Positions 8,386-54,614 of a stretch of DNA of 64,000 nt are shown here, piece by piece. Position numbers and translations under genes: made by a program. The DNA lies in NCBI GenBank assembly GCA_963775685.1, contig CAVZJV010000014.1, positions 1,216,001 to 1,280,000 of the forward strand, given 5' to 3'. The notes beneath the pieces were generated by a model. The model did not search any database and was not told the origin of the DNA. It was given only the letters and a program-made list of their open reading frames with translations. This DNA comes from Candidatus Bathyarchaeota archaeon (lineage in GTDB: Archaea > Thermoproteota > Bathyarchaeia > Bathyarchaeales > Bathycorpusculaceae). How positions within the stretch are numbered: position 1 is the first letter of the stretch; each line of letters opens with the position of its first letter.

Positions 8386-8461
8386 CTAAGAAAAGCCAGT
8401 TTCCCCTCTTTTTGAGCTTTTATAAAATATTAATTAGCCTGTTTCTATTTAGCATTGTACC

Positions 8462-9300: not shown

Positions 9301-9489
9301 ACGAAAAAAGGCGCATCATTACTGCTTATCTTAGCAATAATTGCAGCATTTTACTTGGTGATATTTTCGCCCTTTAAAGGTATTTTGCCTCAGTCATTCA
9401 TTATTGTAGTCACCATATTTGCTTCAGTTGCGCTTTTTGGCGTTGTCCTATCCCTCTGTTTTAGAAAAAGAAACAAAAACTTTGCATAA
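9301..9489 (+). CDS. Small 2-TM membrane protein with non-canonical (ACG) or mutated start; not in ORF track
   Basis: Open frame (T)KKGASLLLILAIIAAFYLVIF...LSLCFRKRNKNFA; GGTGA SD-like motif 4 nt before ACG; TTTTAA box at ~9262. Confidence 0.4.
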   Translation, partial: TKKGASLLLILAIIAAFYLVIFSPFKGILPQSFIIVVTIFASVALFGVVLSLCFRKRNKNFA

Positions 9490-9506
9490 TGAAAAAGGAA
9501 AAGAAG

Positions 9507-9788
9507 TTATTCTCTGCATTGCCTAAGGGTACGCAGTTCTTCGATGGTCTTATTTAAAACTGCCTTATCGGTGAAGGATTCAACTGCGGAGACAGGCAAG
9601 CAAACTATAACCTTTCCAAGGTATGGATGCTTGAAACCCAGTTTTTTTGATGCTTCGTCATTTAAAGCGACAAATAAATTGATTATTTGCCAGTTGCTCA
9701 TGTCTAATTCTGCGCTTTGCACTTCTCCGAGGGCAAAGCCATCTGAAGTGAAAGCTGGTTTCCAAAATAACCGTGTAATTTCAACCAT
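9507..9788 (-). CDS. PRC-barrel-like protein
   Basis: K..FTSDG..LGEV...ELD...WQI pattern. Confidence 0.6.
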   Translation of the reverse strand: MVEITRLFWKPAFTSDGFALGEVQSAELDMSNWQIINLFVALNDEASKKLGFKHPYLGKVIVCLPVSAVESFTDKAVLNKTIEELRTLRQCRE

Positions 9789-9897
9789 TTAAAAACCTTC
9801 AGATAGTAAATATCAAGCGCTTCTTTATATCTTTTTTTTAAAGGCAGATGCAGAAGTCTTTTAGCTTTCCAAGAATAATAGTTACTTTGGTGTTTTA

Positions 9898-10287
9898 TTG
9901 TCAAATTCTAAAAACCAAACTACCCTAAATCAGCTTACCCCTGAAGAACAACAGGTCATCGTAAAGAAAGGCACCGAAATACCCTTCACAGGAAAATACT
10001 ATGCATTCTGGGAAAAAGGCACCTATGTCTGCAAACGCTGCGGAGCAAAACTGTACCGTTCAGAAAACAAGTTTGAAGCAAACTGCGGCTGGCCAAGCTT
10101 TGACGACGAAATTCCCGGTGCAGTAAACCGGCTTCCTGACCCCGATGGTGTGAGAACAGAAATTCAATGCATTAACTGCGGCGCCCACCTTGGACATGTC
10201 TTCACGGGTGAGCATTTTACTGAAAAAGATACGCGGCATTGTGTTAATTCTATGTCGATGGAGTTTATCCCAGACAAAACCCCGTAG
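9898..10287 (+). CDS. msrB: Methionine-(R)-sulfoxide reductase B
   Basis: KGTE.PFTG, CGWPSF, RTEI.C..C..HLGHVF, RHCVNS. Confidence 0.95.
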   Translation: MSNSKNQTTLNQLTPEEQQVIVKKGTEIPFTGKYYAFWEKGTYVCKRCGAKLYRSENKFEANCGWPSFDDEIPGAVNRLPDPDGVRTEIQCINCGAHLGHVFTGEHFTEKDTRHCVNSMSMEFIPDKTP

Positions 10288-10348
10288 CTTCAACGCGAAA
10301 GAGTTATACACGACATAGCCCAAGTGGCATTTAGCAGGCGGCTCGGCT

Positions 10349-11125
10349 TTGGCTGACATATTCGGAGTCCAAATTCCACTTTCCACAGTATTCGAAATAA
10401 TAGTAATTGCCATAATCGCGGTTGCTCTTGAGAGATTAGTCAGTCGTTACCTAACAGGTTTTGCCAAACGCATCAAGCTTGAACCAAATGCAGGCAACAA
10501 CCTTGTCTTGACCTTCCGAATACTTATCCTAATATTTGCCATATTAACCGTAAGCAGCGTGGGCGGAGTGCAAGCGGCCTGGCTTTTGTCAATTTCAGCT
10601 ATAGGAGGCGCTGCTTTGGGTTTTGCATCTCAAAAGACAGTGGGCAACTTCTTGGCTGGACTCTTCCTTTTAGCCGCAAAACCCTTTAAAGTTGGCGACT
10701 ACGTGAAAATCGGAATCGTTGAAGGAATAGTGCAAGAAATCACCATAAACTATGCCAAAGTTTTAACAGCAGCCCACAACACCGTTTCAGTTAGCAACCT
10801 CCAAATCTTGGACCGGGACATAACTAACTTCCTCTTCGAAAGCACAAAAACATACAACCTTTACTGCTACACCTTCGAAATCGGCTTTGACCATGCTGTT
10901 TCAACGGATAAAATTGCTGAGATATTCAATAAAGTCTTTGAAAAGCATCAACGTACACTTCCAAAAACGCCTAGCTATGTTCTTACGCGATCTGGAGCGT
11001 TTGAAAGAGTTTACACAATTTACCTTTATGTAGAACACCCTGAAGAAATTTTTACCCTTAGACCCCGAATTGCTCAAGACGTGTTTCAAGGCTGGGATGA
11101 GGAAAGAGGAAAAATAAAACTTTAA
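10349..11125 (+). CDS. mscS: Small-conductance mechanosensitive channel
   Basis: GAALGFASQ..VGN..AG, KPFKVGD, G.V.EI. Confidence 0.85.
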   Translation: MADIFGVQIPLSTVFEIIVIAIIAVALERLVSRYLTGFAKRIKLEPNAGNNLVLTFRILILIFAILTVSSVGGVQAAWLLSISAIGGAALGFASQKTVGNFLAGLFLLAAKPFKVGDYVKIGIVEGIVQEITINYAKVLTAAHNTVSVSNLQILDRDITNFLFESTKTYNLYCYTFEIGFDHAVSTDKIAEIFNKVFEKHQRTLPKTPSYVLTRSGAFERVYTIYLYVEHPEEIFTLRPRIAQDVFQGWDEERGKIKL

Positions 11126-11165
11126 TTTTATGCAACTTGTAAAATCACTAAAAAGGAAGATAAGT

Positions 11166-11507
11166 ATGAAGACTCAAAACAGTGAAAAAATCTTACTTGA
11201 GGCAAAAGCAACTCAGTTAATTGGGTTAATCAACTATCAAGAAGGCTCAGTTGTAAGCCGCACAATAATCGACAAGAAAACAGGAACCGTAACGTTGTTT
11301 GCTTTTGATGAGAATCAAGGTTTAAGCGAGCACAAGGCACCCTACGACGCAATGGTTTACGTTCTTGAAGGCGAAGTTGTAGTCACCATATCGGGCAAAC
11401 CCATTAGCTTAAAGGATGGTGAAATGACCATCATGCCGGCAAATCAGCCCCATGCCTTAACGGCGAATACAAGGTTTAAAATGCTCTTAACCATGATAAA
11501 ATCTTAA
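11166..11507 (+). CDS. Cupin domain protein
   Basis: LFAFD..QGLSEH.AP.DA.V.VLEGE, MPANQPHAL; start trimmed to MKTQ. Confidence 0.85.
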   Translation: MKTQNSEKILLEAKATQLIGLINYQEGSVVSRTIIDKKTGTVTLFAFDENQGLSEHKAPYDAMVYVLEGEVVVTISGKPISLKDGEMTIMPANQPHALTANTRFKMLLTMIKS

Positions 11508-12118
11508 GGTTTGCCGCCCCACGTATCCAAAAAACAAAATTCAACAAGCGACTTTTTTGGGGGCACACAAGGAGTCTCAGCAGGGTAACCCATTATGACA
11601 AACGCTTCGGGCTCCACTGAATCAGGAATTTTGAGCACTTTTCGCACTGTTTCTTTGCAGAATCCAGGAGCACAAAACCAGCAGGCTCCCAAACCTTTCA
11701 TATGGGTCGTCAAAAGCAGGTTCTGCATGGCTGCGCCCAAACTTTGCATTGCCAAGTCCCTCTCGCAGGTCTGTCTTTTGTCATCAGGAAATTTTCTGAG
11801 TCCCTCTAGGGTTGAGCAAGCAAGAATTAGCACCGGCGCATCCGCAAACCACTCGACCCTTTCCTTACGCATTTTCGCCTCAACAGTTAAGCCGTCCCTC
11901 TCCAAGTCGACTACCCAGGCATCAGCCATATCAATCGCCAGCCTTCGCTTAACAGAAGCATCGGCTAAAACGATAAACCACCAGGGCTGAGAGTTGTGAG
12001 CTGAAGGAGCCCAGCCAGCAGCAATCAAAACTTCCTCAACCATTTCTCTGGGAACGGGCTTGGACAAATACTTTCTAATGCTGCGTCGCTGCCTAATCGC
12101 ATCGAACAGGTCTGTCAT
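11504..12118 (-). CDS. Nitroreductase family protein (FbiB C-terminal-like)
   Basis: RRSIRKY, APSAHNSQPW, QNLLL...GLGACW. Confidence 0.85.
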   Translation of the reverse strand: MTDLFDAIRQRRSIRKYLSKPVPREMVEEVLIAAGWAPSAHNSQPWWFIVLADASVKRRLAIDMADAWVVDLERDGLTVEAKMRKERVEWFADAPVLILACSTLEGLRKFPDDKRQTCERDLAMQSLGAAMQNLLLTTHMKGLGACWFCAPGFCKETVRKVLKIPDSVEPEAFVIMGYPAETPCVPPKKSLVEFCFLDTWGGKP

Positions 12119-12149
12119 GGATACAGTTTATGCGGGCTTTCTTTTTATC

Positions 12150-13190
12150 TTATGCTGTGTTAGGCTCCAAAATTATCTTTAGCGATTGCCCAGCTTCAGC
12201 CATCAATCGGAAGCCTTCCTGTGCATCACGCAAACTAATCCTATTCGTAATCATATCTTTAACATTAATGCTCCCTGTAGCCAGATATCGCAACGAATCT
12301 TCAAGGTCACCTGGAGCAGCGCCATAGCTAGTGCGCATGACAATTTCGTTGCGCCAAAACTGGTTAATGGGAACAGGTAACTTCACGGTTGGCTCAGGCA
12401 CGGCAAAGAACAGTATGATTCCGCCATTATCCACGCAATCCAACGCTGCCATGGCAGCTGAGGTTGCACCCGTGCAGACGATAACTTGGTCGGCTAAGTG
12501 TCCATTGTTGACTTCCTTGAGTTTTTGGGGAAGGCTTTCTTTTGCGTTTAGGGTGTGGTTCGCGCCGAATTTTTTTGCAAGCTCCAACCTATAGGGGTTA
12601 ATGTCGGCTACGGCTATGTTTTGTATGCCTTTGAACTGAGCGAGTTGTGTATGCAATATGCCAGAGATGCCGCTGCCGATGATGAGCAATGAGTCTTCTT
12701 TTTGCAGGTTTGCCAGCCTTTGAGCCCTAGACACGCAGGCTAAGGGCTCGATGAAGGTACCTTCTTCAAAGCTCATGGCGTTTGGGAGTTTGTAGATGCC
12801 GTATTGGACGTTGATTTTGGGAACTTGGATGTATTGTGCGAAACCGCCGGGGTAATAATTGGTTGTGTGAAGGGTATGGCATGCTGTTTGGCTGCCGCGT
12901 TTGCAGTAGCGGCACTGGTAACAGGGAACATGGTGGGATACAAAGACCCGATCGCCCTCGTTAACTCCAATAACTTTTCTGCCAACCTTGCTAATGATGC
13001 CTGTTGCTTCATGCCCTAGCACGAGTGGTGCCTTTGGAACACGATACCATTCGATCACGTCGCTGCCGCATATACCGCTAGCCATCACTTTGAGCAGCAC
13101 TTCGTCGTCACCTATTTTTGGGATTGGAATTTCTTCGATGCGGACGTCATGGTTATTGTAATAGAAGGCTGCAAGCAAACGGTTCACCAA
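12150..13190 (-). CDS. Zn-dependent sugar-alcohol dehydrogenase (MDR family)
   Basis: GICGSD, LGHE, CxxCxxC...C structural zinc, GSGISG. Confidence 0.88.
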   Translation of the reverse strand: MVNRLLAAFYYNNHDVRIEEIPIPKIGDDEVLLKVMASGICGSDVIEWYRVPKAPLVLGHEATGIISKVGRKVIGVNEGDRVFVSHHVPCYQCRYCKRGSQTACHTLHTTNYYPGGFAQYIQVPKINVQYGIYKLPNAMSFEEGTFIEPLACVSRAQRLANLQKEDSLLIIGSGISGILHTQLAQFKGIQNIAVADINPYRLELAKKFGANHTLNAKESLPQKLKEVNNGHLADQVIVCTGATSAAMAALDCVDNGGIILFFAVPEPTVKLPVPINQFWRNEIVMRTSYGAAPGDLEDSLRYLATGSINVKDMITNRISLRDAQEGFRLMAEAGQSLKIILEPNTA

Positions 13191-13199
13191 AAATGAGGG

Positions 13200-13997
13200 T
13201 TAGGTTTTGCCTAATACAATTTGGTTGTAGATATCGTCGGCTTCTTGGGGAGTGTAGCCTTCGTGGATTATGGCGCGAATAGCTTTGATGGAAGCTACGG
13301 GGTGCGCCGTTTGCCAGATGTTTCGTCCCAAGTTAACGCCTATGGCGCCCTTCTGCAAGCCTTCATAGACAAAATCGAAAACTTCCCGCTGGGTTTCTGT
13401 TTTGGGACCACCCGCAATCACTATAGGAACCGGGCAGCCGTCCACAACTTTTTCAAAATGCTCTTTGCAATAGTAAGTCTTAACGACACGAGCGCCAATT
13501 TCAGCGGTTATGCGGGCTGCTAAGGCTAAGTATCGGGCTTCTCGCTTTTCAAGTTCCTTGCCGACTGCACACACAGCCATGACAGGTATACCGTATTCTT
13601 CGCATTCGTCGACGAGTTTGGCCAAGTTTCCAAGACTTTTGTTCTCGTATTTGGTTCCAACAAAGACGGACATAGAGACAGCTGAAGCGTTTAGCCTGAC
13701 GATTTCCTCTATGGATGTAACTATACTTTCGTTGGCTAGATCTTCTCCAACCACAGAGACAGCGCCTGAAACCCGCATTATGATTGGTTTCTCGATAGAG
13801 GGATCGATACAGTTACGTAAAACGCCGCGTGTAAGCATAAGGCCATCGGCGTATTGAATAATTGGCTTTATAGTTACGCCAGGGTGCTCAAGACCATGTG
13901 TGGGTCCCTGGAAGTAACCATGGTCAATCGGCAAAAACAGGGCTTTGCCGTCTTTCTGGATAAGTCTACTTAGGCGATTTTTCATTCCCCAATCCAT
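13200..13997 (-). CDS. lsrF: LsrF-like thiolase / DhnA-type class I aldolase
   Basis: MDWGMKNRLS, DHGYFQGPT.GLE, VKTYYC, IAGGPK, GRNIWQ. Confidence 0.8.
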   Translation of the reverse strand: MDWGMKNRLSRLIQKDGKALFLPIDHGYFQGPTHGLEHPGVTIKPIIQYADGLMLTRGVLRNCIDPSIEKPIIMRVSGAVSVVGEDLANESIVTSIEEIVRLNASAVSMSVFVGTKYENKSLGNLAKLVDECEEYGIPVMAVCAVGKELEKREARYLALAARITAEIGARVVKTYYCKEHFEKVVDGCPVPIVIAGGPKTETQREVFDFVYEGLQKGAIGVNLGRNIWQTAHPVASIKAIRAIIHEGYTPQEADDIYNQIVLGKT

Positions 13998-42829: not shown

Positions 42830-43720
42830 ATGAAAAAAATGAAGATTATCTCTGGTCCCGCGTCCAAAGCGCTTGCTGAAGCGGTTTCAGCATTATCTGG
42901 TTTCCCAAATGTACCTGTTGTTTCAAAGGTTTTTCCCGATGGAGAATCCTATGTACGTTTGGATGGAAACGTTCAAGGTGAAGACGTGGCAATTGTTCAG
43001 ACGACTTGTCCACCCATGCAGGATGGCAGGCTTTTCCAATTAGCGTTCATGGCTGACGCGGCTAAACGTGGCGGTGCAAAAAAAGTCACTACCGTTGTGC
43101 CTTACTTGGCTTATGCTCGGCAAGACAAAATGTTTCTCTCTGGCGAGGGCATAAGCGTGGAAACCATCGCGCGCATGCTCAAAGCTTCTGGAATCGACCA
43201 GTTTCTAACAATTAACATTCATTCTGAACCCACGTTGGGGAATTTTCCGTTTCCAGCCAAAACCCTAAGCGCCATTCCACTCATTGCGGAATACTTTGTC
43301 GACAAAGGTCACAAAGGGGCATTCGCGCTTTCACCCGACAAAGGCGCTATGTACATCGCCCAGCAAGCCCAAGTAGTTCTTTGTGGCGACGCAGGACACC
43401 TCAACAAAACTCGCGACCGTTACACGGGCCAAACTGCCCAAACCGCCGAGGGTCTAAACGTGAAAGACCAAACCGTCATAATTCTAGATGACATCGTTAG
43501 CACAGGAGGCACAATCGTTGGTGCTGCAAAAATCCTCAGGGAACAAGGAGCTAGACATGTTTTCTGCGGTTGCGTCCATGGTTTGCTAATTGGCAATGCT
43601 GAGAGGCGGATTTTGGATGCGGGTGTGGAGGAGATTGTTGGAACCGACAGCGTTCCCGGAAGCGTGAGTAAGGTTTCGTTGGCACCACTTATCAGTCAAG
43701 AGCTTAAGGCGCAACAGTAG
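42830..43720 (+). CDS. prs: Ribose-phosphate pyrophosphokinase
   Basis: FPDGE, PYLAYARQD, SPDKGA, DDIVSTGGT. Confidence 0.94.
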   Translation: MKKMKIISGPASKALAEAVSALSGFPNVPVVSKVFPDGESYVRLDGNVQGEDVAIVQTTCPPMQDGRLFQLAFMADAAKRGGAKKVTTVVPYLAYARQDKMFLSGEGISVETIARMLKASGIDQFLTINIHSEPTLGNFPFPAKTLSAIPLIAEYFVDKGHKGAFALSPDKGAMYIAQQAQVVLCGDAGHLNKTRDRYTGQTAQTAEGLNVKDQTVIILDDIVSTGGTIVGAAKILREQGARHVFCGCVHGLLIGNAERRILDAGVEEIVGTDSVPGSVSKVSLAPLISQELKAQQ

Positions 43721-44793
43721 TGCCTAAACTCTTCTTTTTGCTCTCAGGCGAGAACGAAACACTGCCCAGCGCGGAAGTTAAGGCGATTCTGGAGGCGGAA
43801 GGGTATCGCTTCTCGAATGTTTCAGAGTTTGACCAGATTCTGCGGTTAGAAGCGGAAGTGGGCAGCGTCCAACCTGTACAGGTTCGCTCTGCTTACACTC
43901 GGTTTTGCGCTCTTGAACTTTTTGTGGCAAACGCAAACTTTATTGACATTGCAAAAGCAGCCGCGGAAACAGATTTCAAAGCCGTCCTTAAGCCCGGCGA
44001 AAAGTTTGTTGTGCGGATAAATAGGATAAAAAACTATGCTGACCAAGTAAACTCGATGGTTCTAGAGGGTATGTTGGGTAAGCAAATATTAAACGGCACT
44101 GATGGAACTAAAGTCAGCTTGAAAAACTCAGATAAGACCTTCATAGGAATAATAACCGATGAAAAACTCATTTTAGGCTTAAAGCTAACTGATATAACCA
44201 GCAAAACCTTCTCTGAACAGCGTCCACGCAAAAAACCGTTTTTCCACCCATCTGCAATGCCCTCAAAAATGGCGCGGTGCATGGTAAATTTGGCACATGC
44301 AAAAGCAGAATCGGTGCTACTTGACCCTTTCTGTGGAACAGGCACCTCGCTCATAGAAGCCACCTACATCGGTTGCCGAGCAGTGGGAATAGATGCCCAG
44401 AGACGCATGATTTTGGGCACACAGAAAAACTTGCGTTTCTTCAACATCTCAGCGGAAGGATTAGTGCTTGCAGATTCACGAAAAACCCCTTTCTCTAAAG
44501 TCGATTGTATAATTACTGATCCACCCTATGGTCGCTCATCGAGCACACTTAAATCAACTACTAAGCAGTTGGTAGAAGAAGTTTTAGCATCCTCGCGGGA
44601 GTTGCTTGGGGTAGGGCAACGAATTTGTATAGCCCTTCCGATACAGGTGAACGGATGTGGAAAAACAGAGAGATTAGCTGAAGTACTCAAGTCTCATATT
44701 GCTAACTTAGGATTTAAAACTATTGAGTCACACAAGGTCTATATCCACCGAAGCCTGACAAGAGAAATAATGGTTTATGAAAAAGTCAGTTAA
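43720..44793 (+). CDS. trm11: tRNA (guanine-10-N2)-methyltransferase (Trm11/TrmG10), chimeric: 3' end from 44634 supplied by the integrated element
   Basis: LSGE, THUMP region, KPFFHP, DPFCGTG, TDPPYG, YIHRSLTREI. Confidence 0.88.
   Translation: MPKLFFLLSGENETLPSAEVKAILEAEGYRFSNVSEFDQILRLEAEVGSVQPVQVRSAYTRFCALELFVANANFIDIAKAAAETDFKAVLKPGEKFVVRINRIKNYADQVNSMVLEGMLGKQILNGTDGTKVSLKNSDKTFIGIITDEKLILGLKLTDITSKTFSEQRPRKKPFFHPSAMPSKMARCMVNLAHAKAESVLLDPFCGTGTSLIEATYIGCRAVGIDAQRRMILGTQKNLRFFNISAEGLVLADSRKTPFSKVDCIITDPPYGRSSSTLKSTTKQLVEEVLASSRELLGVGQRICIALPIQVNGCGKTERLAEVLKSHIANLGFKTIESHKVYIHRSLTREIMVYEKVS
44623..44633 (+). repeat. attL core ATTTGTATAGC
   Basis: Identical to 53557-53567 and in the same reading frame (I-C-I-A). 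Confidence 0.85.
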
Positions 44794-45157
44794 AAACATA
44801 GTAGCGAGTTTCTTATTGTAGCAATTTTTTAGGATAAACCCATTGTAGCAGAAAGTAGCCCTTATTTTGTGTAGCAGTTTTCTAAGTGAATAATAATATT
44901 GTATGGGTTACTTCTCTCTTTACTTGAAGCTGGAAAGATTCTTAAAGAAAACTTTGTTGTCTTTCTATCAATTATCGAAAACGTTAGTGCAGCACCGCAC
45001 GAATGCAGAAGCGATACCCACTTGTCTTAATTAGCTAACGAAATGGTCTTAATGGTACTTTCAGATTATTACTGTTTGGTAAACCTCTTAGTAGAGAAAC
45101 TTATCTCTTAAGTTGGTTAAAACCCTCAGTTTGAGGCTTAGAATTCATGTGGATAAG

Positions 45158-45703
45158 TTAGAGGTTAATAATCCCAATCTTTGTTTGAATCTGAATTGGG
45201 ATTGTAGCATTTAAGAAAGGAAAACGCTGTTTGTTTTCATCTTTATGCTCTATAATGTTAATCCCAGAAGAGGTAATTTCTGCCCATAACCACAATTTAT
45301 CCATAGTGCTTTCAATTTTTATTAGGTTTTCTTGTTCAAGATATTTTGTATCGAAGTCAACTATATTTTCTGGAACATTCAAGAGTTCAATAACTTGTTC
45401 CCTTTTGATTATGTTATCTTTAGGATTTGTTTCTGCTTTTTTATAGAGTATTGTTAGAATGGAGTGTCTAATTTGATCATGGGAAAGAATGGAATTATCT
45501 TTATCTATTAGTTCTTTTTTTGGTTTTCGATGGTCAAGTATGTCAATTCGGCAAACAATGAAACCAGCACTTAAGAAGGGTATACCTAAAATTAGAAGCC
45601 AAAAGTCGAAGAAAAAACCATAAGATGCTATCAAAGAACTTAGAGAAACCAAAATTAATCCAATTATATATAATGGTCCAATTTCATCTTTTCCAAGCTT
45701 CAT
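45158..45703 (-). CDS. Cargo protein: 2 TM helices + winged-helix-like domain
   Basis: Hydrophobic N-terminus; IL..LY...YLEQENLI...EITSSG..IIE wHTH-like pattern; start trimmed to MKLG. Confidence 0.55.
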   Translation of the reverse strand: MKLGKDEIGPLYIIGLILVSLSSLIASYGFFFDFWLLILGIPFLSAGFIVCRIDILDHRKPKKELIDKDNSILSHDQIRHSILTILYKKAETNPKDNIIKREQVIELLNVPENIVDFDTKYLEQENLIKIESTMDKLWLWAEITSSGINIIEHKDENKQRFPFLNATIPIQIQTKIGIINL

Positions 45704-45768
45704 ATTTAATTTTCTCCTTCTCCTAATGTTACATTCTACGTTATTCAGTTTTAAGTTTTTGCCATTGA

Positions 45769-46335
45769 TTATTTTTGGCATTGAATCATGGCTCTCTTGT
45801 TAATGTTACCAACATTGCAAATTGCTCTTAAGACAACTTCAAGAGCATTACAAAAATGAAATTCTATAAACATATAAATTGGTTCATCCTTCTTCCAAGA
45901 TTCATAAATGGCTTTCTTTTTAGAGTTTGCATGTGCCAATCCACCGTAAATAAAAATATCTATAAGCTCTCCTTTAGTTGGAGTAAATCCGTATAAATTC
46001 ATGTTAATTTTAGTATCAAGATAATTGTTTAATCCGTTTCTCTGGTCTAAAAATTCTTTTTTAAGCTCTGACGAAATAGGTAATTTTTCAAAACTTTCGC
46101 TTAATCGGTGAAAAGAACTTTTTTCATTGTCTTGAGTAAAGAAGCGATAGGTTAAAACAAAGGCATCAATTGCATCTTGGTCAGGAAGTATCCTTGTCAT
46201 CTTAACCTCTTCACCCTCATTTAAAGTTACGCTTGCTGAAAGTTTACCTGTTTCTTTCAAGTGTTTTACAAAACGTGTTTTCAGTAGTTTTTCTGCTTTT
46301 TCGTTGAAGAGTTTGAGAGATGAGAGTTCATCCAT
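45769..46335 (-). CDS. Cargo protein, helical, possibly HEPN-like
   Basis: 188-aa AT-rich ORF; YGGLAH motif near the C-terminus. Confidence 0.5.
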   Translation of the reverse strand: MDELSSLKLFNEKAEKLLKTRFVKHLKETGKLSASVTLNEGEEVKMTRILPDQDAIDAFVLTYRFFTQDNEKSSFHRLSESFEKLPISSELKKEFLDQRNGLNNYLDTKINMNLYGFTPTKGELIDIFIYGGLAHANSKKKAIYESWKKDEPIYMFIEFHFCNALEVVLRAICNVGNINKRAMIQCQK

Positions 46336-46418
46336 GCGTTTACTCTAACATTTAGTATTAAAAGCTTCGGCTTTTAGTTTTTGCTATCAAGAGAGAAACT
46401 TAGATTATTTGACCTAAT

Positions 46419-46856
46419 TCATACTTCTCGTTCTAATCTATCCCCAAAATGGAGTATCGGAACAGCTTTGTAAAATCCAGCTTTCCTATTATCTGGTTCC
46501 AGTGGATATGTACCTCTTAGCTCTTGCCACTTCTCATAATCAGTTAAGTTAGGGTTAAGCTCTATATGCAAACTTAGACGTAATTCTTTGTCTCTAACTG
46601 CTCGCCATTCAGCTAATTCCTCGTCATGCTTCTGTCGAGTCTCGGCTGAGAGGTCGTAATCTTGGTAAAACTTATGGGTACTGACATACTCGTCATACTG
46701 CTCTTTAGTGAAGCCCTTGAACCTGTATCTTATTTGTTTTAAGGTCTTCGCGTCTTGCTTCTCTTGCTCTGAAGCTTCTATTATGATAAAATTAGTTTGT
46801 TCTTGTAAAACTTCCATATTCTTAACTCCTATTGGTCTGGTCTCAAATGGGTACAA
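46419..46856 (-). CDS. Hypothetical protein (element)
   Basis: Co-oriented ORF; no recognised motif. Confidence 0.55.
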   Translation of the reverse strand: MYPFETRPIGVKNMEVLQEQTNFIIIEASEQEKQDAKTLKQIRYRFKGFTKEQYDEYVSTHKFYQDYDLSAETRQKHDEELAEWRAVRDKELRLSLHIELNPNLTDYEKWQELRGTYPLEPDNRKAGFYKAVPILHFGDRLEREV

Positions 46857-46908
46857 GAATAAGGGAAAGAAGGCATAACCTTACTCTTGTACCGCTTGAG
46901 ATGTGACT

Positions 46909-47199
46909 CTACTTCTTCTTCTTTTGATATTGAGCTATTACGCGCCCAACATCAATACTAACTGCCCGTGTTGCTGCATTGTGAAAAGATGAGGTGGTTG
47001 ACGGTAGAATAGGTGTGAGCTTATCTATTACCGACTGTCTACCCTCTTGTTTGGCTTGCTCAGCTAACTTAGCGGTTTCTGTTCGATTAATAGCTAAGTT
47101 TCTTTCAAGTTTACCCTTTGCCTGTAGCAACTCTGCTTCTCGTCTTTTGAGAGCTTGAATGTCTCTTCGTACTTCTTCTACAGTAGGTACAGTAGGCAT
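46909..47199 (-). CDS. Coiled-coil hypothetical protein (element)
   Basis: Heptad-like N-terminal half; overlaps upstream stop. Confidence 0.6.
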   Translation of the reverse strand: MPTVPTVEEVRRDIQALKRREAELLQAKGKLERNLAINRTETAKLAEQAKQEGRQSVIDKLTPILPSTTSSFHNAATRAVSIDVGRVIAQYQKKKK

Positions 47200-47453
47200 T
47201 AGACGATGTCTCCTATCTGTAGCTCGTCTGCTTTTCTGTAAACATGCTCCCGTAAATTACATGCTGCCTTGTACTCTGGATTTACGCTGCGATAGTATTT
47301 CGCGGTCTTGCCTGTTTCCTTGAGATATCTTAGCTGTGCTTTTACCTTGACCTTACTATAAGCGATAGGTCTGCACCTGTCGCAGTACTTCTGATTTCCC
47401 TTGAGTGCAGTCCCACAGTTGCAAACATGTCTCAGCGTCTCTTGAAAGGTCAT
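47199..47453 (-). CDS. Small Zn-finger protein (element)
   Basis: CNCG...QKYCDRC; ATGA-coupled. Confidence 0.6.
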   Translation of the reverse strand: MTFQETLRHVCNCGTALKGNQKYCDRCRPIAYSKVKVKAQLRYLKETGKTAKYYRSVNPEYKAACNLREHVYRKADELQIGDIV

Positions 47454-48145
47454 TGCTTCTTTCCCCCGAGGAAGGAACCTAACCCAAAACCCTTCTTCTT
47501 TGGTGTTTCTTTTTTAGCTACCTGTTTAGTTTTCAAAACTGCATCATATTCGGCAGTAGTAGGTTGGCGAAGTCTTCCATCGTTAGCATCTTTAACGAAC
47601 CCATACTTCTCCCAATAACCAGCGTCTTGTGCAGCTAATCCTAACCCCACATCAATTATGGTGCACGGAATGGGCTTAGCTCGATTAACTATAGGGTCTG
47701 GAGAAACTTTGCACTTTATCGTAAAGACATGAGATACGATTTCACCGTACATGTCTGAATTCTGTGTCTTATGGGTAGCTACTGCTGTCTCTCCATCATC
47801 TGTAAAGACGACATCGCTTGTCATGTATAAGGTACCATCGTATAGGTCCCAGCGGTTCTTTTGGGGGACATATTTTAAGACGTATCTTCCGTCAGAAAAA
47901 TAAAGATACTTGTCCATTACTATTACGCCCTCATCATAGACATTAACTAAAGCTCTGTACCTCTCTAATAATTTAGAAAGCTTAACTTTGTCTTCACGGT
48001 GCATTTCACTATTAACGTAAGGTCCATCTTTAAGTGAGTACGCTGTTGGGTTGTTGACTTTACTGTTTAAGTATTCTATCTCTTTTTGAAGAGCTAATCT
48101 CTTAGCTTTGATTTCTTCGTTAGTCAGAGTTGGTTTGTCACTCAT
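47450..48145 (-). CDS. Hypothetical protein (element)
   Basis: 231 aa, SD-like GAGGGGG, beta-rich core, amphipathic tail KKKGFGLGSFLGGKKQ. Confidence 0.65.
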   Translation of the reverse strand: MSDKPTLTNEEIKAKRLALQKEIEYLNSKVNNPTAYSLKDGPYVNSEMHREDKVKLSKLLERYRALVNVYDEGVIVMDKYLYFSDGRYVLKYVPQKNRWDLYDGTLYMTSDVVFTDDGETAVATHKTQNSDMYGEIVSHVFTIKCKVSPDPIVNRAKPIPCTIIDVGLGLAAQDAGYWEKYGFVKDANDGRLRQPTTAEYDAVLKTKQVAKKETPKKKGFGLGSFLGGKKQ

Positions 48146-48251
48146 TGGTTGTTTCCCCCTCTGCTAAGTGCTCCTGATTTAACAGGGATTATTTTCCTAC
48201 TTTGAATTATTGATTTGCTGGTTCCGCATTTCATATATTTTTGCCTCTTTT

Positions 48252-48509
48252 TTACACTGTATACTTAACTACAATTTTCTCGGTGAAAGACTCCTGCAGT
48301 CCCTCATCGCTGTTTAAAGACCCTTGAATGCTCTTGTAGTTACTAAGAGCAATCTTAGTCTGAAAGGACATCTCTTTATTGCAGAGTTTCAAACTCTCCA
48401 ACAAAACAGCTATCTGTTCCTGTAAGGCGTTCTCTCTAAGATGCATATAATAGAGCTTAACGTCAATGTCTCGGAAGACTAATTTCCTGAGTGCTTGAGA
48501 GAACTTCAA
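48252..48509 (-). CDS. Hypothetical protein (element)
   Basis: TTG start after GGGGAG, overlapping upstream stop. Confidence 0.5.
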   Translation of the reverse strand: MKFSQALRKLVFRDIDVKLYYMHLRENALQEQIAVLLESLKLCNKEMSFQTKIALSNYKSIQGSLNSDEGLQESFTEKIVVKYTV

Positions 48510-48667
48510 TAAAATCTCCCCTGTTTATTCCGCTTCCTCGCATTTCCAGCGTTAGTTACTTTTCTGCAACTTTCTGTGCAGAATACTTTGTCTATAGTGT
48601 AGGTCTGGAAATTCCCTTTGCATCCAAGACATACTTTGTTTAGGATTGTGTTTGATATGTTTTCCAT
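48506..48667 (-). CDS. Small treble-clef-like Zn-finger protein (53 aa), not in ORF track
   Basis: MENISNTILNKVCLGCKGNF...VFCTESCR; both ends overlap neighbours. Confidence 0.6.
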   Translation of the reverse strand: MENISNTILNKVCLGCKGNFQTYTIDKVFCTESCRKVTNAGNARKRNKQGRFY

Positions 48668-49131
48668 CACTCGAAAGTCCTCCGATAATCTAAATACTTC
48701 TTATACTCATGAATGCGAATGAAGCACTGTGGACATGTGGGTTCTAATGAGCTTCTCATATAATCGCAAAGTTCGCACTCAACCTTTGGGTCGCCTACCT
48801 CTAAAAATCCTTGAATCTCGCCAACAGTTATGCCATGAACAAGCGGTAAATCTTCACCTAAATATAGATGAATCTCCATAAAGTCAACGTCTACACCTAA
48901 CACTTTGTAAAACTTCTTCCACGATTGATAGGCTTCCTTGACTTGTGGAATGGTCTTACCGTAAAACCAGAGATTGATAAGACTCTCTAAGTTCTCTTCT
49001 GTCTTTACAACTTGACTAACGTTAGCCTTTGTAGCTGCTTCTATCTTGGACTGTAACTCTCGCTCTTTCTTTTGCTGTTGATAGTGTCTCTGACGCGCGG
49101 CACTGTCTGGGTACACTCTCTTTCTGCCCAT
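48667..49131 (-). CDS. Hypothetical protein with basic N-terminus and C-terminal CxxC...CxxC
   Basis: MGRKRVYPDSAARQR; CELC...CPQC. Confidence 0.6.
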   Translation of the reverse strand: MGRKRVYPDSAARQRHYQQQKKERELQSKIEAATKANVSQVVKTEENLESLINLWFYGKTIPQVKEAYQSWKKFYKVLGVDVDFMEIHLYLGEDLPLVHGITVGEIQGFLEVGDPKVECELCDYMRSSLEPTCPQCFIRIHEYKKYLDYRRTFE

Positions 49132-49221
49132 TCAAACTGCATCTCCGATAATGTCTGATTTCTGTTTTCGAGCGTCAATTCTAATGTGATTATTGCCAAC
49201 CAAGAATAATTCCCTCTTTCC

Positions 49222-49374
49222 CTACTTACTCTTAGAATCTTTGAGTAATTTTAAAGCTCTAAGCACTACACCCTGAAGGGGTTCTGAAGAGTATTCTCTT
49301 AGCTCTTTAGCTAACTGAACAGTACTCTTATCAATCGCTAAACACGTAGTCTTAGATTCATTATTCTCTTTCAT
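49222..49374 (-). CDS. Small RHH/CopG-like DNA-binding protein (50 aa), not in ORF track
   Basis: KTTCLAIDKSTVQLAKEL....EPLQGVVLRALKLL (strand-helix-helix pattern); heads the leftward gene run. Confidence 0.5.
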   Translation of the reverse strand: MKENNESKTTCLAIDKSTVQLAKELREYSSEPLQGVVLRALKLLKDSKSK

Positions 49375-49814
49375 TATTAATCACTAATATATCTCTAATT
49401 AATCTCTGATAATAGATAACCGTTAAAGTGCCTATAAAGGATTATGGTCTTTTCTTAATCACTATAGAAACTTAGCTACTTTCTTCTCCCTCTCTGACTA
49501 TATGGTCGTGTTTTGAGCGACAGAATCAACCTTTATCCAACCTTCTTTAGCTAAATAACCTTCTTAATGGTCATGTTCGCATTGCGAATTGCTAACCAAT
49601 TAGACTTGACCTTTTTCTTAGATTCTTTAGCTAATTGCTGCCTTCTCTGTGCCAATTTCATATCGCAACTTTGATCTAATAACTTTGTGCCAATACCAGA
49701 GCTAAAGCCTTGATTCCCTGAATAGAACTCTCACTAAGGTGATTCTCAATGAGAATTACTGTGTTCACTGACAGTATTTTTATTAAGAAAGAAGCCAAAA
49801 TCATACTTCTTTGT

Positions 49815-50117
49815 CTAATTGCTCCCTTTGTCGGTCTTGGCACTCTGAGTGCATTTTTCATTGATAAACCGACCTGTTTCAAGCTCTGTTTGCAATTTAA
49901 TGGGCTTGCCTACCCGATTTATCTGATAAATTTTTTCATTGATAGATAGAAGCTCAGAATAAGGGTATTCGTTTAATTGCTCCCCTCATTGGTCGTTGTA
50001 CTCTGAGTACATTTTTTATTGATAGAGATAGGCTCAGATTAAGCGTATTCATTCAATTACTCTCTTTATTGGTCACGGTGGTGTGACCACATTCTTTCTT
50101 GATAGAAAGAGGCTCAA
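49815..50117. repeat. Tandem array of four ~80-bp units, each with a 13-bp hairpin followed by N8-TTGATA
   Basis: Hairpins at 49840, 49918, 49998, 50078 (spacing 78/80/80). Confidence 0.8.
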
Positions 50118-50169
50118 AGGATTACCGAGAAAACTTAGCTAAAAACAGATTCAGAACCATATTTCTTTG

Positions 50170-50337
50170 TTATTGACTGAAAGCTCTTCGACTGCCCCTT
50201 ACACGGTAAGATTCGCGTTGCTCTTCCTCACGCTTCAAGGCTTTCAAGTGTCGTATTCTCTCTGCCTCGTCTTTATTATTGTCAACAATGACAACGTGAG
50301 AGCAGTCTGATTTGCCTTTAAATTTGTTGTTAATCAT
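50170..50337 (-). CDS. Small charged protein (55 aa), not in ORF track
   Basis: MINNKFKGKSDCSHVVIVD...RGSRRAFSQ, 13 nt after the nuclease-like ORF. Confidence 0.4.
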   Translation of the reverse strand: MINNKFKGKSDCSHVVIVDNNKDEAERIRHLKALKREEEQRESYRVRGSRRAFSQ

Positions 50338-50350
50338 TCAATTATCCATC

Positions 50351-51106
50351 CTAAACAGTCCCTTTTCCAGTGGGACTTAACTCGTTAAACTTGAGCAAAA
50401 GGACAATTCTTCTAAGAATATTCAATCTTTTTCTCTCTCCTATATGTTGCCATAAGGCGTTACCTGCTCTATCAGTCACTACTATTCTTTCTATATAATG
50501 AGAGTCTTTCTTGCTACAGGTGATTGGTGGGTTTTTTCCATCACTGATTGTCATTTCTTTCCCTATCTTGATAATTTCCAATATCTTCAGTCTATTGATG
50601 GACGCTTCCACTTCTATGGCAGTTAAGTTAGTTTGATATCTCTTACTGAAGGGTTTAAGCAGTTTGAAGAGTGCGCTATCAAATAAGGCTCGAACAGTTG
50701 TGTGTAGGTTATCCTCTTCTGCATGAATGTAAGTTGGAATTAGCTGGATACGTTCTTTCTTAAGTTTCTCCTTCTCTTCTTTAGACATGTTTGGAAAACT
50801 AATGCTGAGAACCCACTCGTCTTTATGTTCTGGGTCTTTACGATGGAAGTATTCTATCTTAGAATCCATAATGTCCTTATTCATGTGGGTTCGTTCTTTA
50901 GGGTTAGTAACTTCTAAAAGAATCCTTTTTCCTTTAACTGGAATAACTATGTCAACTGCGTTATGATGGTCGAATGAATATTCAGAGTGGTCAAAACTGT
51001 TATGGTCGCACTTTAAGCCTAACTTCTGCTCTATGAAGTGGACATGTGCCATCTCTGCTGGAATACCGCTCAGATAGTTTATGTTGAAGTTATTCATTTT
51101 ACTCAT
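50351..51106 (-). CDS. PD-(D/E)XK-like (restriction-endonuclease fold) protein
   Basis: G..AE helix, AVDIVI, LLEVTN (E-x-T-N variant of E-x-K). Confidence 0.5.
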   Translation of the reverse strand: MSKMNNFNINYLSGIPAEMAHVHFIEQKLGLKCDHNSFDHSEYSFDHHNAVDIVIPVKGKRILLEVTNPKERTHMNKDIMDSKIEYFHRKDPEHKDEWVLSISFPNMSKEEKEKLKKERIQLIPTYIHAEEDNLHTTVRALFDSALFKLLKPFSKRYQTNLTAIEVEASINRLKILEIIKIGKEMTISDGKNPPITCSKKDSHYIERIVVTDRAGNALWQHIGERKRLNILRRIVLLLKFNELSPTGKGTV

Positions 51107-51263
51107 TCCTTGTCGAATGCGCTTGATTAGAGGTTAAGGGTGACAAGCCCCTCTCCTCATTAAAATCAAGCTGGGTTGTTAACAATTACAAACCGAAGAA
51201 ACGACTTAAAAGGAATTATGGTCAAAACTAAAATGGTCTACACTTGTGTTCTGCCAATAGCCA

Positions 51264-51334
51264 CTGTTTCAAGCTCCGTTTTCAATTTAAGAGCCTTATC
51301 GGTAGCTGTGACCGCGTCACACCTATGTTTGATA
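51264..51334. repeat. Solitary fifth copy of the hairpin-N8-TTGATA motif
   Basis: GTGAC-CGC-GTCAC at 51308-51320, TTGATA at 51329; 25/27 identity of 51264-51290 to 49874-49900. Confidence 0.75.
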
Positions 51335-51532
51335 CTTTTGGTTCTATTGATAGTTGTTCTATCTAACCCTACTTTCTTAATTATCTCGGTTCGAGTGTTC
51401 CAAGAGAATTGAGAGAGGATGTCTGTGAAATGTTGTTTAATGGTTTTTTAAAAAGCAAAAATCCAGCCCTTATCTAACCTTCTTTTCTAAATTACTATTT
51501 ATTATGGGGCTATTGCCATTGGCAATTAAATC

Positions 51533-51976
51533 TCAACCCGAAACAGTTGGGTGAGGAATGCTAAACTTGAAGCCTAAGAATTTCTGTTTCCTTATTCGCT
51601 TTTCCTCATAGGACTCGGCGTTTGGGTTATGTCTTCTATACCGATCTCCATGTCTTAATTTCTCTTCTTTTGAATGGGTTTCTCGATACTGCTTATTCCA
51701 TTCATGGTAGTTCTCTTTATTCAGTTCAAAGTACTCTTTGCTTCCTACACTATGATTAGCACAATACCTCATTTGTCTCTTGCTTAAGAAGCGCCCACAA
51801 ACTTCACATCTACGCTGAGACCAAGAAATCAAATCACTACTACTTGACTTATACACTCGATAGCCTGTACTAAAACAGCCATCGCCAATACTATGAGTTG
51901 TTGTATTCATCTCACTCATCCTCACAATAGTAATATCGGAATAATGCTTAAAAGGATTTTTGGGTATTATATTCAA
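51533..51976 (-). CDS. Zn-finger hypothetical protein (element)
   Basis: RRCEVCGRFL...RYCANH and charged helical tail; start uncertain. Confidence 0.5.
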   Translation of the reverse strand: MNIIPKNPFKHYSDITIVRMSEMNTTTHSIGDGCFSTGYRVYKSSSSDLISWSQRRCEVCGRFLSKRQMRYCANHSVGSKEYFELNKENYHEWNKQYRETHSKEEKLRHGDRYRRHNPNAESYEEKRIRKQKFLGFKFSIPHPTVSG

Positions 51977-52253
51977 TTTGGAATAATGACAAGACTAAAA
52001 AATTTTTGGGAGCATTCTGTTTCCCATTACATGATCGAAAAGGTGGGGCGAGGTAGTTTGTATGCTATTATTAAGTAACATCTACCCAGTATTCCATTTC
52101 CCATTACGATTTTGAAATATCTTTCTTGAGAATAATTACAGATTGTTGTAGCCTTGTACTATTGTTATACAGTTGGGCTTATTCTCCATTCTCATATAGC
52201 CAATACCCATAGTAGAGGCTTTTCTTAGTAGTAGCATCAATAGCAGTAGTGAT

Positions 52254-53501
52254 CTAACGCCTCACCTTACCCTTAGGTTTAATCTCTGGTTCTTCTTCAT
52301 GAGCGTTAAGCTCTTCCTCAATCGCTCGCTCTAACCCTTCCCTGTTGATTTTGATGTTTCCATTATTGCTAAGTTTCCTAAGTAGAATGTCTACAGTGAG
52401 CTTCTCAGCAACAGCGTTATTCTGCCATGTGGTAACTTGAGCTGTTAGTTCCTTAACCTTTAATTCTAATTCGTTAAGCTTAGTCTCGTCTACCACTCGC
52501 ACACCTTCACTCAAGAACTCAAGGTCTGGGAGAGCTTGCTTATACTTAGATCGAAGCTGTTCAATTAATGGTCTGGAATAGGGAGCTTCTTCACCGCTAA
52601 CCTTTCTTCCCTTAATCTTCTTAATCCAGTTGATAGGACATCCAGCATTCTCTAAAGCTGTTTGAACTATACGTCTACCATCATGAAAAGTGAAGTTTGC
52701 ATTAGCTCTTTGCTCTAAAATGGTTGCTTTCTTTGCTATCATGCGTATAGTTAATGGTTCGCTTATGTTGCGTTTGACTGAGAGAAAAACATAGTCTTCG
52801 TTAGTCCACTTGTGACCAAAGTTCTTTTCCATCCATTCTCTATATTCAATAACTACTCTTTTTGCTTCGTTAGTTATGAAGGTCTCTTGCCTTACGCCTC
52901 TATACTTTCCCTTGCCATGACCCTTCACTAAATCAGAGGGTAAAGAGATGTGTGGACATTCTTGAGTTTCCCAACCCTCTTCAAAGTGATAGAATCTTAG
53001 CTTTGAGAGGGACTCTAAAGCTATTGCTGAAGTTGCACCTATCATAACGAGTGCTTGGTCTCTGGGGTTTCTGCATGCTTTGAATACTGCTAACCGAGTT
53101 TCTTTAGAGGGTACAGTGTGGCTTTCATTCTGTATGTATGGCATGGACCGACCAGCTTGCGCCTGAAGTTGTCGGTAATTTGTTCTAAAGAATCCTCTGA
53201 GACATTGAGCTATGTGCCACTTTCTTTTTTCTGGAAAGATAACTTTGGCATTCGCTAAACTGTCTAAGAGCTTCTCTGCCTCTAAGCTATTGTAATCTTT
53301 CTTTAGGTCTAACAACTGGTCAGGATTCAACCCAGACCAATTACAGAAATGATAAAGAGAGATGGCTGCGCTGCCCTGTCTACTGTGAAGAGTATTAAGA
53401 TAATTCATTACGCATTGATAGTTTTTAGCCCAACCATCTAATACTGTTAGCTCAGTGAAACCATACTTTAAATTCTTCTTTTTCGCTTCTACTATACCCA
53501 T
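52254..53501 (-). CDS. Tyrosine recombinase/integrase with C-terminal coiled coil
   Basis: RDQAL box I, K in LVKG, TFIT.EA, HDGRR box II, APYSRP tyrosine; TATA-like box ~27 nt upstream. Confidence 0.85.
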   Translation of the reverse strand: MGIVEAKKKNLKYGFTELTVLDGWAKNYQCVMNYLNTLHSRQGSAAISLYHFCNWSGLNPDQLLDLKKDYNSLEAEKLLDSLANAKVIFPEKRKWHIAQCLRGFFRTNYRQLQAQAGRSMPYIQNESHTVPSKETRLAVFKACRNPRDQALVMIGATSAIALESLSKLRFYHFEEGWETQECPHISLPSDLVKGHGKGKYRGVRQETFITNEAKRVVIEYREWMEKNFGHKWTNEDYVFLSVKRNISEPLTIRMIAKKATILEQRANANFTFHDGRRIVQTALENAGCPINWIKKIKGRKVSGEEAPYSRPLIEQLRSKYKQALPDLEFLSEGVRVVDETKLNELELKVKELTAQVTTWQNNAVAEKLTVDILLRKLSNNGNIKINREGLERAIEEELNAHEEEPEIKPKGKVRR

Positions 53502-53556
53502 GTGTCTCTCACTCTCAAGCGTTACCTATTATAGTTTCACCCTTATTAATTCACCT

Positions 53557-53697
53557 ATTTGTATAGCTTCCCCCAAAACATTGAATATATCGCGTTTAGG
53601 CACTGACTTGGGCTATCGGCATGTTGAATCGCACTTTGCCTATATTCATCAGTCTTTGACGCGGGAGATTGCAGTGTTCGAAAAGGTGAATGTATGA
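53557..53697 (+). pseudogene. attR core (53557-53567) plus displaced native 3' end of trm11
   Basis: ICIASPKTLN...ESHFAYIHQSLTREIAVFEKVNV*; stop overlaps rnz ATG. Confidence 0.88.
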
Positions 53698-54614
53698 GTC
53701 TTCGTGTGGTGTTTTTGGGGACAAGTGGCAGCGTACCAACGCTAAAAAGAAGTCTACCCTCCGTCGTTGTGCAATGTCCGCGCGACCAATGGATGTTTGA
53801 CTGCGGCGAAAACGTACAACGGCAAATGATGCAAGCGAAAGTCAGTTTTCACCGTAAAATGAAAGTGTTCATTACTCATCTGCATGGCGATCACGTTTTG
53901 GGTTTGCCCGGACTATTGCAGACAATGGCATTGATGGGTCGCACCGAGCCAGTTCAGATTTATGGTCCAGTTGGGCTGAAGGATTTTCTTGTTTGTACCA
54001 AAGAAACACTCAACTTTGGCTTAACCTTCTCGGTTGAGATAAGCGAAATCCCTGCAGAAGGCATCGTTTGCAACGAAGAAGAATACAGAGTTATATCAAC
54101 TAAATCTAACCACGCTGTACAAAGCTATGCCTTTGCTTTTGTGGAAAAGCCGCGTCCAGGCAAGTTCTATCCAAAAAAAGCGTTGGCGCTTGGAGTTGCG
54201 GCGGGTGAGCTGTGGTCTAAGCTGCAAAGCGGCAAAGAAATTACTTTGGCGGATGGTAAGGTGATTAAACCAAGCGATGTTATGGGTCCTCTGCGGACTG
54301 GACGCAAAATCATCTACACAGGCGACACCAAACCCTTTGAGGCGTTCGCAAAATTCGCGCAGGGAGCAGATTTGGTGATTCATGATTGCACGTTTGACGA
54401 TTCTCTCACTGAGAAGGCAAATGTGGATGGACATTCAACGCCAACTCAAGCAGCTGAGCAAGCGAGGGCGGCTGGAGCAAAACAGTTGGTTCTGTCCCAC
54501 ATCAGCGCTCGGTACACAAACGCAGGGTTGCTTTTGGACCAAGCAAAAAAAGTCTTCCCCAAAAGCATACTTGCCGAGGATTTTATGGAGCTGGAGCTTC
54601 CCTTAAGCGAGTAG
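53694..54614 (+). CDS. rnz: Ribonuclease Z
   Basis: FLGTSG, DCGE, THLHGDH, YTGDT, HST, LSHISARY. Confidence 0.94.
   Translation: MSLRVVFLGTSGSVPTLKRSLPSVVVQCPRDQWMFDCGENVQRQMMQAKVSFHRKMKVFITHLHGDHVLGLPGLLQTMALMGRTEPVQIYGPVGLKDFLVCTKETLNFGLTFSVEISEIPAEGIVCNEEEYRVISTKSNHAVQSYAFAFVEKPRPGKFYPKKALALGVAAGELWSKLQSGKEITLADGKVIKPSDVMGPLRTGRKIIYTGDTKPFEAFAKFAQGADLVIHDCTFDDSLTEKANVDGHSTPTQAAEQARAAGAKQLVLSHISARYTNAGLLLDQAKKVFPKSILAEDFMELELPLSE

Follow-up and report, generated by a model that had tools for sequence, protein, structure and literature searches.

In a 64-kb stretch of the genome of a Candidatus Bathyarchaeota archaeon (genome G000; contig CAVZJV010000014.1, positions 1,216,001 to 1,280,000; hereafter the window, in whose coordinates all positions are given), the tRNA methyltransferase gene trm11 is interrupted near its 3′ end by a segment that carries a tyrosine integrase gene and provides trm11 with a different end. 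An earlier note on this DNA had proposed that an integrase-bearing element was inserted in the 3′ end of trm11, supplied its own C-terminus, and left the native tail stranded. The anatomy of the locus, its relatives, the empty site, and the link between the integrase and its target, which are described below, all agree with this proposal.

Anatomy of the interrupted trm11 locus

The host-derived body of trm11 (residues 1–301; 43720–44622, + strand) is followed by the 11-mer ATTTGTATAGC (44623–44633, + strand), the core of the left attachment site (attL), and then by an element-borne 3′ end (44634–44793, + strand; residues 306–357 and a TAA stop codon). Together they form a chimeric open reading frame (ORF) of 357 codons (43720–44793). 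The core of the right attachment site (attR), again ATTTGTATAGC (53557–53567, + strand), opens the stranded native tail, which consists of 46 codons and a stop codon and is intact (53557–53697, + strand). These are the only two exact matches of the 11-mer in the window. Both encode I-C-I-A in frame, as the earlier note had stated; 0.03 matches were expected by chance, and two or more were found in none of 100 shuffles. The span between the two cores is 8,934 bp (region 44623–53567), with a GC content of 0.30–0.44 as against 0.45–0.51 in the flanks. All tRNA genes of the window are far from the element.

Counted from the core, the left (element) tail has 56 residues and the right (native) tail 46, and the reading frames confirmed both lengths. 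The element tail contains an insert of 10 residues that all native tails lack. In a codon-aware alignment of the two tails, 26 of the 45 aligned residues are identical, with only seven of these 26 encoded by the same codon, and 78 of the 135 aligned bases match (58%). The codons are thus largely different, as previously described, and our recount of the last block (18 of 28 residues identical) agrees with the 18 of 27 given before.

The trm11 product has a THUMP domain (residues 72–153; E 4e-6) and a UPF0020 domain of the RMKL-type methyltransferases (residues 170–306; E 8e-25). It contains the DPPYG motif of Rossmann methyltransferases, which is invariant in the alignments of both tail types. 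Its best relatives in PDB were Trm11 of T. kodakarensis (5e71; E 2e-28) and tRNA G10 dimethyltransferase (6zxw/6zxv; E 4e-25), and the Trm14 structure 3tlj matched far more weakly (E 7e-8). The match to TIGR01177 scored 233 bits, under the equivalog cut-off of 316. By its closest characterised relatives, the product is classed as an archaeal Trm11-type tRNA (guanine-10) methyltransferase, not as Trm14 or RlmKL. Orthologues of trm11 were present in all 41 relatives examined.

The divergent tyrosine integrase (415 amino acids; 52254–53501, − strand) is encoded at the right end of the element and points away from rnz, the RNase Z gene next to the stranded tail. PF00589 matched seven of the eight aligned integrase orthologues with E values down to 3.9e-6, and the integrase of PHROG 1 matched that of the window at 2e-5. 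R146, a lysine-rich hairpin (K196/K198), H272-x-x-R275, and Y307 are invariant in eight close orthologues; the catalytic R, K, H-x-x-R, and Y could be aligned across 22 integrases of the genus, among which that of locus L059 lacks the arginine. The second His/Trp catalytic position is arginine (R298) in the clade of the window's integrase and histidine in more distant integrases. The attR core and the start codon of the integrase are 55 nt apart, and the same geometry was found in six further genomes and six metagenome loci. The genome of the window has a second tyrosine recombinase (G000:C14:1365732–1366706; L022), which is 29% identical to the integrase described here, falls in another clade, and retains the canonical second histidine.

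The interval that separates the integrase start codon from the core (53502–53556) is a putative arm of the attachment site, as judged from an alignment of 10 attR regions. In this alignment, a conserved CACTCTCAAG block adjoins the integrase start codon, the core is preceded at ca. 34 nt by a repeat resembling it, and at about 53537–53546 a TATA-like box (CCTATATTAA) is conserved. The core is kept in the form ATTTGTAT[A/T/C]GC across the empty sites, attL, and attR of relatives, and the identity block of the junctions begins precisely at core base 1. In three genomes (G046, G076, and G128), position 9 of the core is unequal between attL and attR, with the element base in attL and the base typical of related native genes in attR. 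These differences suggest that strand exchange takes place within the first 8 bases of the core, at positions that we place only provisionally; later mutation or array structure could also have produced them. An overlap of 8 bases is a normal length for tyrosine recombinases.

Native and element-borne tails

To establish which tail belongs to the host, we compared 26 trm11 sequences from 25 genomes of the same genus, one of which has two copies. Seventeen of them carry the short, right-hand type of tail contiguous with rnz, and nine carry the long, left-hand type. All uninterrupted trm11–rnz loci have the short tail, both in the genus (17 of 17) and in other families of the order (11 of 11 genomes). 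The uninterrupted genes of relatives thus resemble the right-hand tail; a resemblance to the left-hand tail would have spoken against the proposal. The empty-site junction that the earlier note had predicted is present letter for letter in a genome of the same genus (G002). Furthermore, genome G098 contains an occupied and an empty contig, which share 89–90% nucleotide identity and are distinguished by an insertion of 2.5 kb whose boundaries are at the core. The empty-site relatives and the G098 pair indicate that the right-hand tail is ancestral and that the left-hand tail arrived with the insert. In agreement with this, the stranded tail of the window shows few residue differences over its first 43 residues from the intact tails of G001, G002, and G012 of the same genus, with proportions of nonsynonymous and synonymous differences (pN and pS) of 0.02–0.05 and 0.27–0.66, respectively.

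In a tree of 45 alignment columns, from which the insert was excluded, 26 element tails formed one clade separate from 41 native tails (Shimodaira–Hasegawa-like approximate likelihood ratio test [SH-aLRT], 99.6). The mean identity of the element tails was 0.52 to the native tails of the genus and 0.49 to the tails of other families, and that between the latter two groups was 0.59. Element tails are further from the native tails of the genus than these are from those of other families, and their lineage is old. Within groups, the identity was 64% for element tails and 79% for native tails of the genus. When the long-tail state was mapped on a tree of the host-derived gene body (residues 1–301), six changes were required, at least five of which are forced by well-supported branches, and a single change sufficed in none of 200 bootstrap trees. 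The distances of tail and body did not run in parallel: the pN of tail and body was 0.24 and 0.10 between G000 and G023, and 0.05 and 0.10 between G023 and G011. This lack of correspondence is consistent with different element lineages having been acquired separately.

Synonymous sites are saturated between species of the genus (pS 0.5–0.9). Among the more diverged pairs of element tails, pN was 0.24–0.36 and pS 0.5–1.0. For four of the five pairs with the least divergence (G023–G010, G023–G011, G010–G011, and the two copies of G015, a and b), dN/dS of the element tails was 0.03–0.10, and in the less diverged pairs it was similar to that of the gene body. With pN far below pS, these values support purifying selection on the element-borne tail, as the earlier note had supposed. 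The heavy recoding that the same note had singled out calls for no explanation of its own, since synonymous sites in the genus are saturated in any case. For the same reason, recoding as an adaptation against homologous recombination was considered and set aside as unneeded. The pN/pS of stranded native tails (0.15–0.16) was close to that of tails in use (0.167); either recent stranding, re-use through excision, or another constraint could account for this.

The S-H...H..LTRE residues do not vary in either tail type. AlphaFold models of both forms predicted that the tail has the order strand–helix–strand–strand, that the core codons lie in a β-strand, and that the tail contributes one helix and the last two strands to the Rossmann fold. 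The helix segment is predicted, at low to moderate confidence, to have seven residues in the native form and ca. 11 in the chimeric form. The mean predicted local distance difference test score (pLDDT) was 71.3 for the native model and 55.7 for the chimeric model, whose tail part scored 67–86; the chimeric model was used for secondary structure alone. A trm11 truncated at the core would lose part of this fold, and an element that inserts at that site must therefore bring a working replacement.

Recurrence of the long tail and the integration module

A long-tailed trm11 was counted by hand in at least 36 of 120 genomes of the genus, among the matches listed. Any match in the long-tail search was obtained in 114 of the 120 genomes, and 23 weaker matches are outside the count of 36. 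Two other genera of the family have long tails as well. Outside the family, searches of 401 order-level and 401 class-level genomes gave no full-length match, either in the 153 genomes of the order's 11 other families or in the 297 genomes sampled from other families in the class.

We located 29 integrase-homologue loci in the genus. The six closest integrases (68–80% identity over the full tblastn match and 76–86% over the conserved core), together with one degraded copy, have a native tail and rnz as immediate neighbours, arranged as in the window. The other 22 homologues (57% identity or less) are all elsewhere. Among eight metagenome integrase loci, six (72–79% identity) are likewise beside a native tail and rnz, although these loci are not all independent, because some may derive from the same organisms as the genome set. 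Duplicated trm11 tails next to integrases, which the earlier note had suggested looking for in other genomes, are thus found both in the genus and in metagenomes. A full-length native tail is kept in all seven integrase-bearing copies. Extra internal element-type tails are present in G128, G076, G124, G107, and G096, as expected for tandem integrations.

We surveyed 17 other long-tail loci in 16 genomes from end to end, or nearly so (the readable part of that of G096 ends before attR), with 22 integrase queries. These loci, which are 0.34–17 kb long, contain ordinary-looking genes, for example those for a histidine kinase, a polyprenyl synthase, and β-propeller surface proteins. The stranded native tail is intact in G010, G109, G078, G130, G107, and G049, interrupted by a stop codon in G023 and G013, frameshifted in G011 and G019, truncated in G098, and absent in G015 and G020. 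The survey detected no integrase-like gene, and at these loci the element-derived tail is fixed. The idea in the earlier note that integration and excision toggle between two isoforms hence does not apply to them; the swap there is a permanent replacement. The sister genomes G023 (L024, 5328–5462) and G010 (L025, 5243–5377) have the same integrase-less island with uneven decay of the tail, which has a stop codon and several replacements in G023 and is fully intact in G010.

Orphan element-type tails were also observed away from trm11, at L032 (G002:C4, 9946–10115), L033 (G012:C13, 9960–10112), L135 (G048:C32, 3337–3555), and L137 (G074:C69, 3617–3790). In some of them, the core is preceded by as many as 18 codons that are similar to the gene body. 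No integrase was observed near the orphan tails. The orphan tail of G002 is degraded by a stop codon and a frame break.

The cargo of the window's element consists of ca. 13 small ORFs, all on the − strand (45158–51976). Almost all are without a family match, and several are cysteine-rich and zinc-finger-like. None matched Pfam at E ≤ 0.01 (two were marginal, at 0.02–0.045), and their matches to PHROGs were weak, none being better than E 3e-4. A search of Rfam gave one chance-level match (20.5 bits; cut-off, 382). The cargo backbone (ca. 44818–51550) recurs collinearly with 66–86% nucleotide identity on a contig of another genome (G109:C6; L133, 60000–79999, about 6300–13300), where orf145 to orf251 are 45–88% identical at the protein level. 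This relative adjoins an adenylosuccinate synthetase gene, has no trm11 tail, and carries a different recombinase-like ORF of 371 amino acids, which can be aligned only weakly to the window's integrase (E 0.001). None of the other elements with a cognate integrase (the copies of G093, G122, G128, and G076) shares the window's cargo. Since the backbone occurs with a different recombinase and without the tail in G109:C6, the integrase, arm, core, and tail act together as a single integration module that can be exchanged. The integrase-bearing copies of G093, G122, G128, and G076 are ca. 25–31 kb as against 8.9 kb in the window. Extra housekeeping-type genes are found in the islands of G093:C6 (L079, 9377–18916) and G128:C2 (L083, 8826–19695), namely those for a CDC48 AAA ATPase, a thermosome subunit, an MIT-AAA (Vps4-like) ATPase, an ATP-dependent DNA ligase, and a NUDIX protein.

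The left end of the element (44794–45157) is non-coding and has five GTAGC repeats within ca. 75 nt, a feature common to the G109:C6 relative. The repeats lie right after the stop codon of the element tail (44800–44885) and include three in the form TGTAGCA, spaced 27–28 nt apart; in addition, three of the window's four TTGTAGCA occurrences fall inside 44816–45209. Neither the GTAGC nor the TTGTAGCA repeats were found in the other trm11-targeting elements, and they are specific to the window's cargo backbone. They may represent an origin or iterons. A role as arm-type integrase sites was rejected, because they also occur in the G109:C6 relative with its different recombinase and so go with the cargo backbone.

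The interrupted gene is flanked by two host genes. Upstream is prs, encoding ribose-phosphate pyrophosphokinase (42830–43720, + strand; Pfam Pribosyltran_N, E 5.7e-31), whose stop codon overlaps the trm11 start by 1 nt. Downstream is rnz (53694–54614, + strand; TIGR02651, 341 bits against a cut-off of 293), whose ATG overlaps the stop codon of the native trm11 tail by 4 nt (ATGA). These overlaps at both borders indicate that the native order was a tight prs–trm11–rnz string, which the insertion has split, separating rnz from the presumable operon promoter. The TATA-like box in the arm is a candidate substitute promoter for rnz; it might instead, or also, drive the integrase.

Explanations of the locus and its significance

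From these results, the region 44623–53567 is very probably an integrated mobile element that carries its own integrase, replaces the end of trm11, and brings an anciently diverged tail of its own. In this explanation, a cryptic, ORFan-rich element of 8.9 kb would enter the chromosome by recombination through its tyrosine integrase. The exchange would take place inside the 8–11-bp core (ATTTGTAT-AGC), in the codon run for the β-strand I-C-I-A near the 3′ end of trm11. The in-frame copy of the gene end beside the element's attachment site would then generate a chimeric Trm11, in which residues 1–301 are from the host and the last helix and two β-strands from the element, and the native 46-codon end would be left promoterless at the far junction, before rnz. 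The integrase, attachment site, and tail would travel as one module on elements with unrelated cargo, and purifying selection would keep the tail, as expected if the loss of Trm11 is costly to the host and hence to the element. The window's copy may still be active.

Several observations weigh against this explanation. The exact repeat is only 11 bp long. The window's integrase scored 26.3 bits against PF00589 (E 7.5e-6), slightly below the gathering cut-off of 27.1, and neither sequence nor profile searches gave a significant relative of this integrase in PDB. The chimeric AlphaFold model has low confidence overall, and the activity of the chimeric Trm11 is inferred from conservation only. 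An integrase-like gene is lacking at most long-tail loci (the 17 surveyed), and the distribution could partly reflect old events that were vertically inherited rather than ongoing mobility. Finally, no attP-form or excised contig was found among the eight metagenome loci or in the viral collection; a scan of viral contigs with the window's integrase detected one weak, unrelated locus.

The last of these points are also what would be expected if one or a few ancient integrations had left an inherited island hotspot, whose contents were turned over by other means and in which the window's integrase is a leftover. Cellular genes in place of an integrase at 17 loci, the island held by descent in G023 and G010, the complete loss of the native tail in G020 and G015, and the missing excised form would all suit such a history. 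We nevertheless regard it as improbable, because the long tail changed at least five times on the host tree, with no bootstrap tree allowing a single change, and the divergence of tail and body is uncoupled. Moreover, the integrase ORF of the window is intact with its catalytic residues present, and the native tail is full-length in every integrase-bearing copy while several integrase-less ones have stop codons or frameshifts. The equal pN/pS of stranded and in-use tails points to recent stranding or re-use, and the tandem arrays with extra internal tails in five genomes are likewise at odds with a leftover. That the long tail is nothing more than another host allele of trm11, with a coincidental 11-bp repeat and intervening DNA of unrelated origin, is very unlikely. 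A repeat in the conserved ICIA run would indeed be expected between homologous tails, and the long-tailed genes are normal-looking full-length ORFs in 36 genomes. However, we observed no long-tailed trm11–rnz locus that was uninterrupted and free of island remnants (that of G020, with a gap of 337 bp, comes nearest), the long tail is absent from the sampled other families of the class and order, the cognate integrase occurs at this junction only, and the insertion in the G098 pair is bounded exactly at the core. The notion that tails of two strains were wrongly joined during assembly or binning is the least credible. Although the genomes are metagenome-assembled and two versions of the locus are present in the bins G015, G048, G098, and G074, the same architecture is found in dozens of independent assemblies, including a contig of 2.1 Mb (G093:C6) and the window's own contig of at least 1.85 Mb, always with the junctions at the same core.

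A further reading concerns the tail itself, which might be a distinct, selected Trm11 isoform that elements have been carrying and refining since a time before the divergence of the host families and that reprograms tRNA modification. We consider this rather unlikely. Both tails would then be kept functional by the cycling of populations between the occupied and empty states, which fits the equal pN/pS of stranded and in-use tails. The longer helix predicted by the models would alter, for example, partner dependence, the range of tRNAs, or the balance between m2G and m2,2G.

Apart from the isoform reading, the gene-end replacement explanation can be compared with known systems. In E. coli, e14 and phage 21 are integrated in icd (Hill, Gray and Brody 1989): the icd gene continues into prophage sequence, the pseudogene icdC is stranded, and excision of e14 switches the icd product between two C-terminal versions, whose ends differ by two residues and a handful of synonymous changes, according to the account in PMC13626634. 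The trm11 locus resembles this system in that a housekeeping protein gene harbours an integrase-bearing element in its 3′ end, with a homologous replacement end in frame at one junction, the native end stranded at the other, and an empty site in relatives. In contrast to the bacterial e14–icd case as given there, the trm11 tails are archaeal and share 26 of 45 residues, with a 10-residue insert and saturated synonymous sites, and the module extends over at least two or three genera with unrelated cargo and is often fixed after the decay of the element.

Protein genes are less rare as archaeal targets than the earlier note had assumed: as reported in the main text of Krupovic et al. 2019 (PMC6563490), 14 of 68 elements of Thaumarchaeota are inserted in protein genes, and their att sites have a median length of 17 bp and a minimum of 8. 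The present element is similar to those, such as NitEve-E2, in being archaeal and in its tyrosine recombinase, very short att site, ORFan-rich cryptic cargo, and reconstituted reading frame. It differs in that the example of replacement described there comprises 8 nt including the stop codon, not a structural segment of 46 to 56 residues; furthermore, trm11 is not among the targets named in that main text, and the hosts here are Bathyarchaeia. Archaeal elements of the SSV, pTN3, and SNJ2 types target tRNA genes and carry the displaced gene end, by which the gene is restored, according to the relevant part of PMC8371274. A copy of the displaced end restores the gene at one junction here as well; in those types, the target is an RNA gene with an identical or nearly identical restored part, whereas in trm11 a protein segment has diverged into a distinct isoform. 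The accessible text of a paper on Bathyarchaeia viruses mentions integrases and gives no attachment sites (PMC10541130). Among the papers listed by our full-text literature search, we recognized no related report of Trm11 as an integration site of integrases. The mechanism is therefore known, and what is new is a long, anciently diverged, and structurally distinct replacement on a module that has spread through an uncultured archaeal family and is often fixed.

To our knowledge, almost no non-viral mobile elements and no genetic tools are known for Bathyarchaeia. As far as the literature searches reach, this is the first integration module with an attachment site described for soil and peat Bathyarchaeia, and it adds a different class of archaea to the Thaumarchaeota, for which very short att sites have been reported. 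The locus illustrates how a structural part of a conserved enzyme connected with translation can be carried by a mobile element, in a version of its own, over a long evolutionary time. When the element decays, its tail becomes the permanent version of the host, a form of protein evolution by tail grafting that has affected about one in three species of a single genus, and a natural pair of Trm11 isoforms is available for comparison. If the isoform reading is true, an element-made Trm11 would be the permanent host enzyme in a third of the species.

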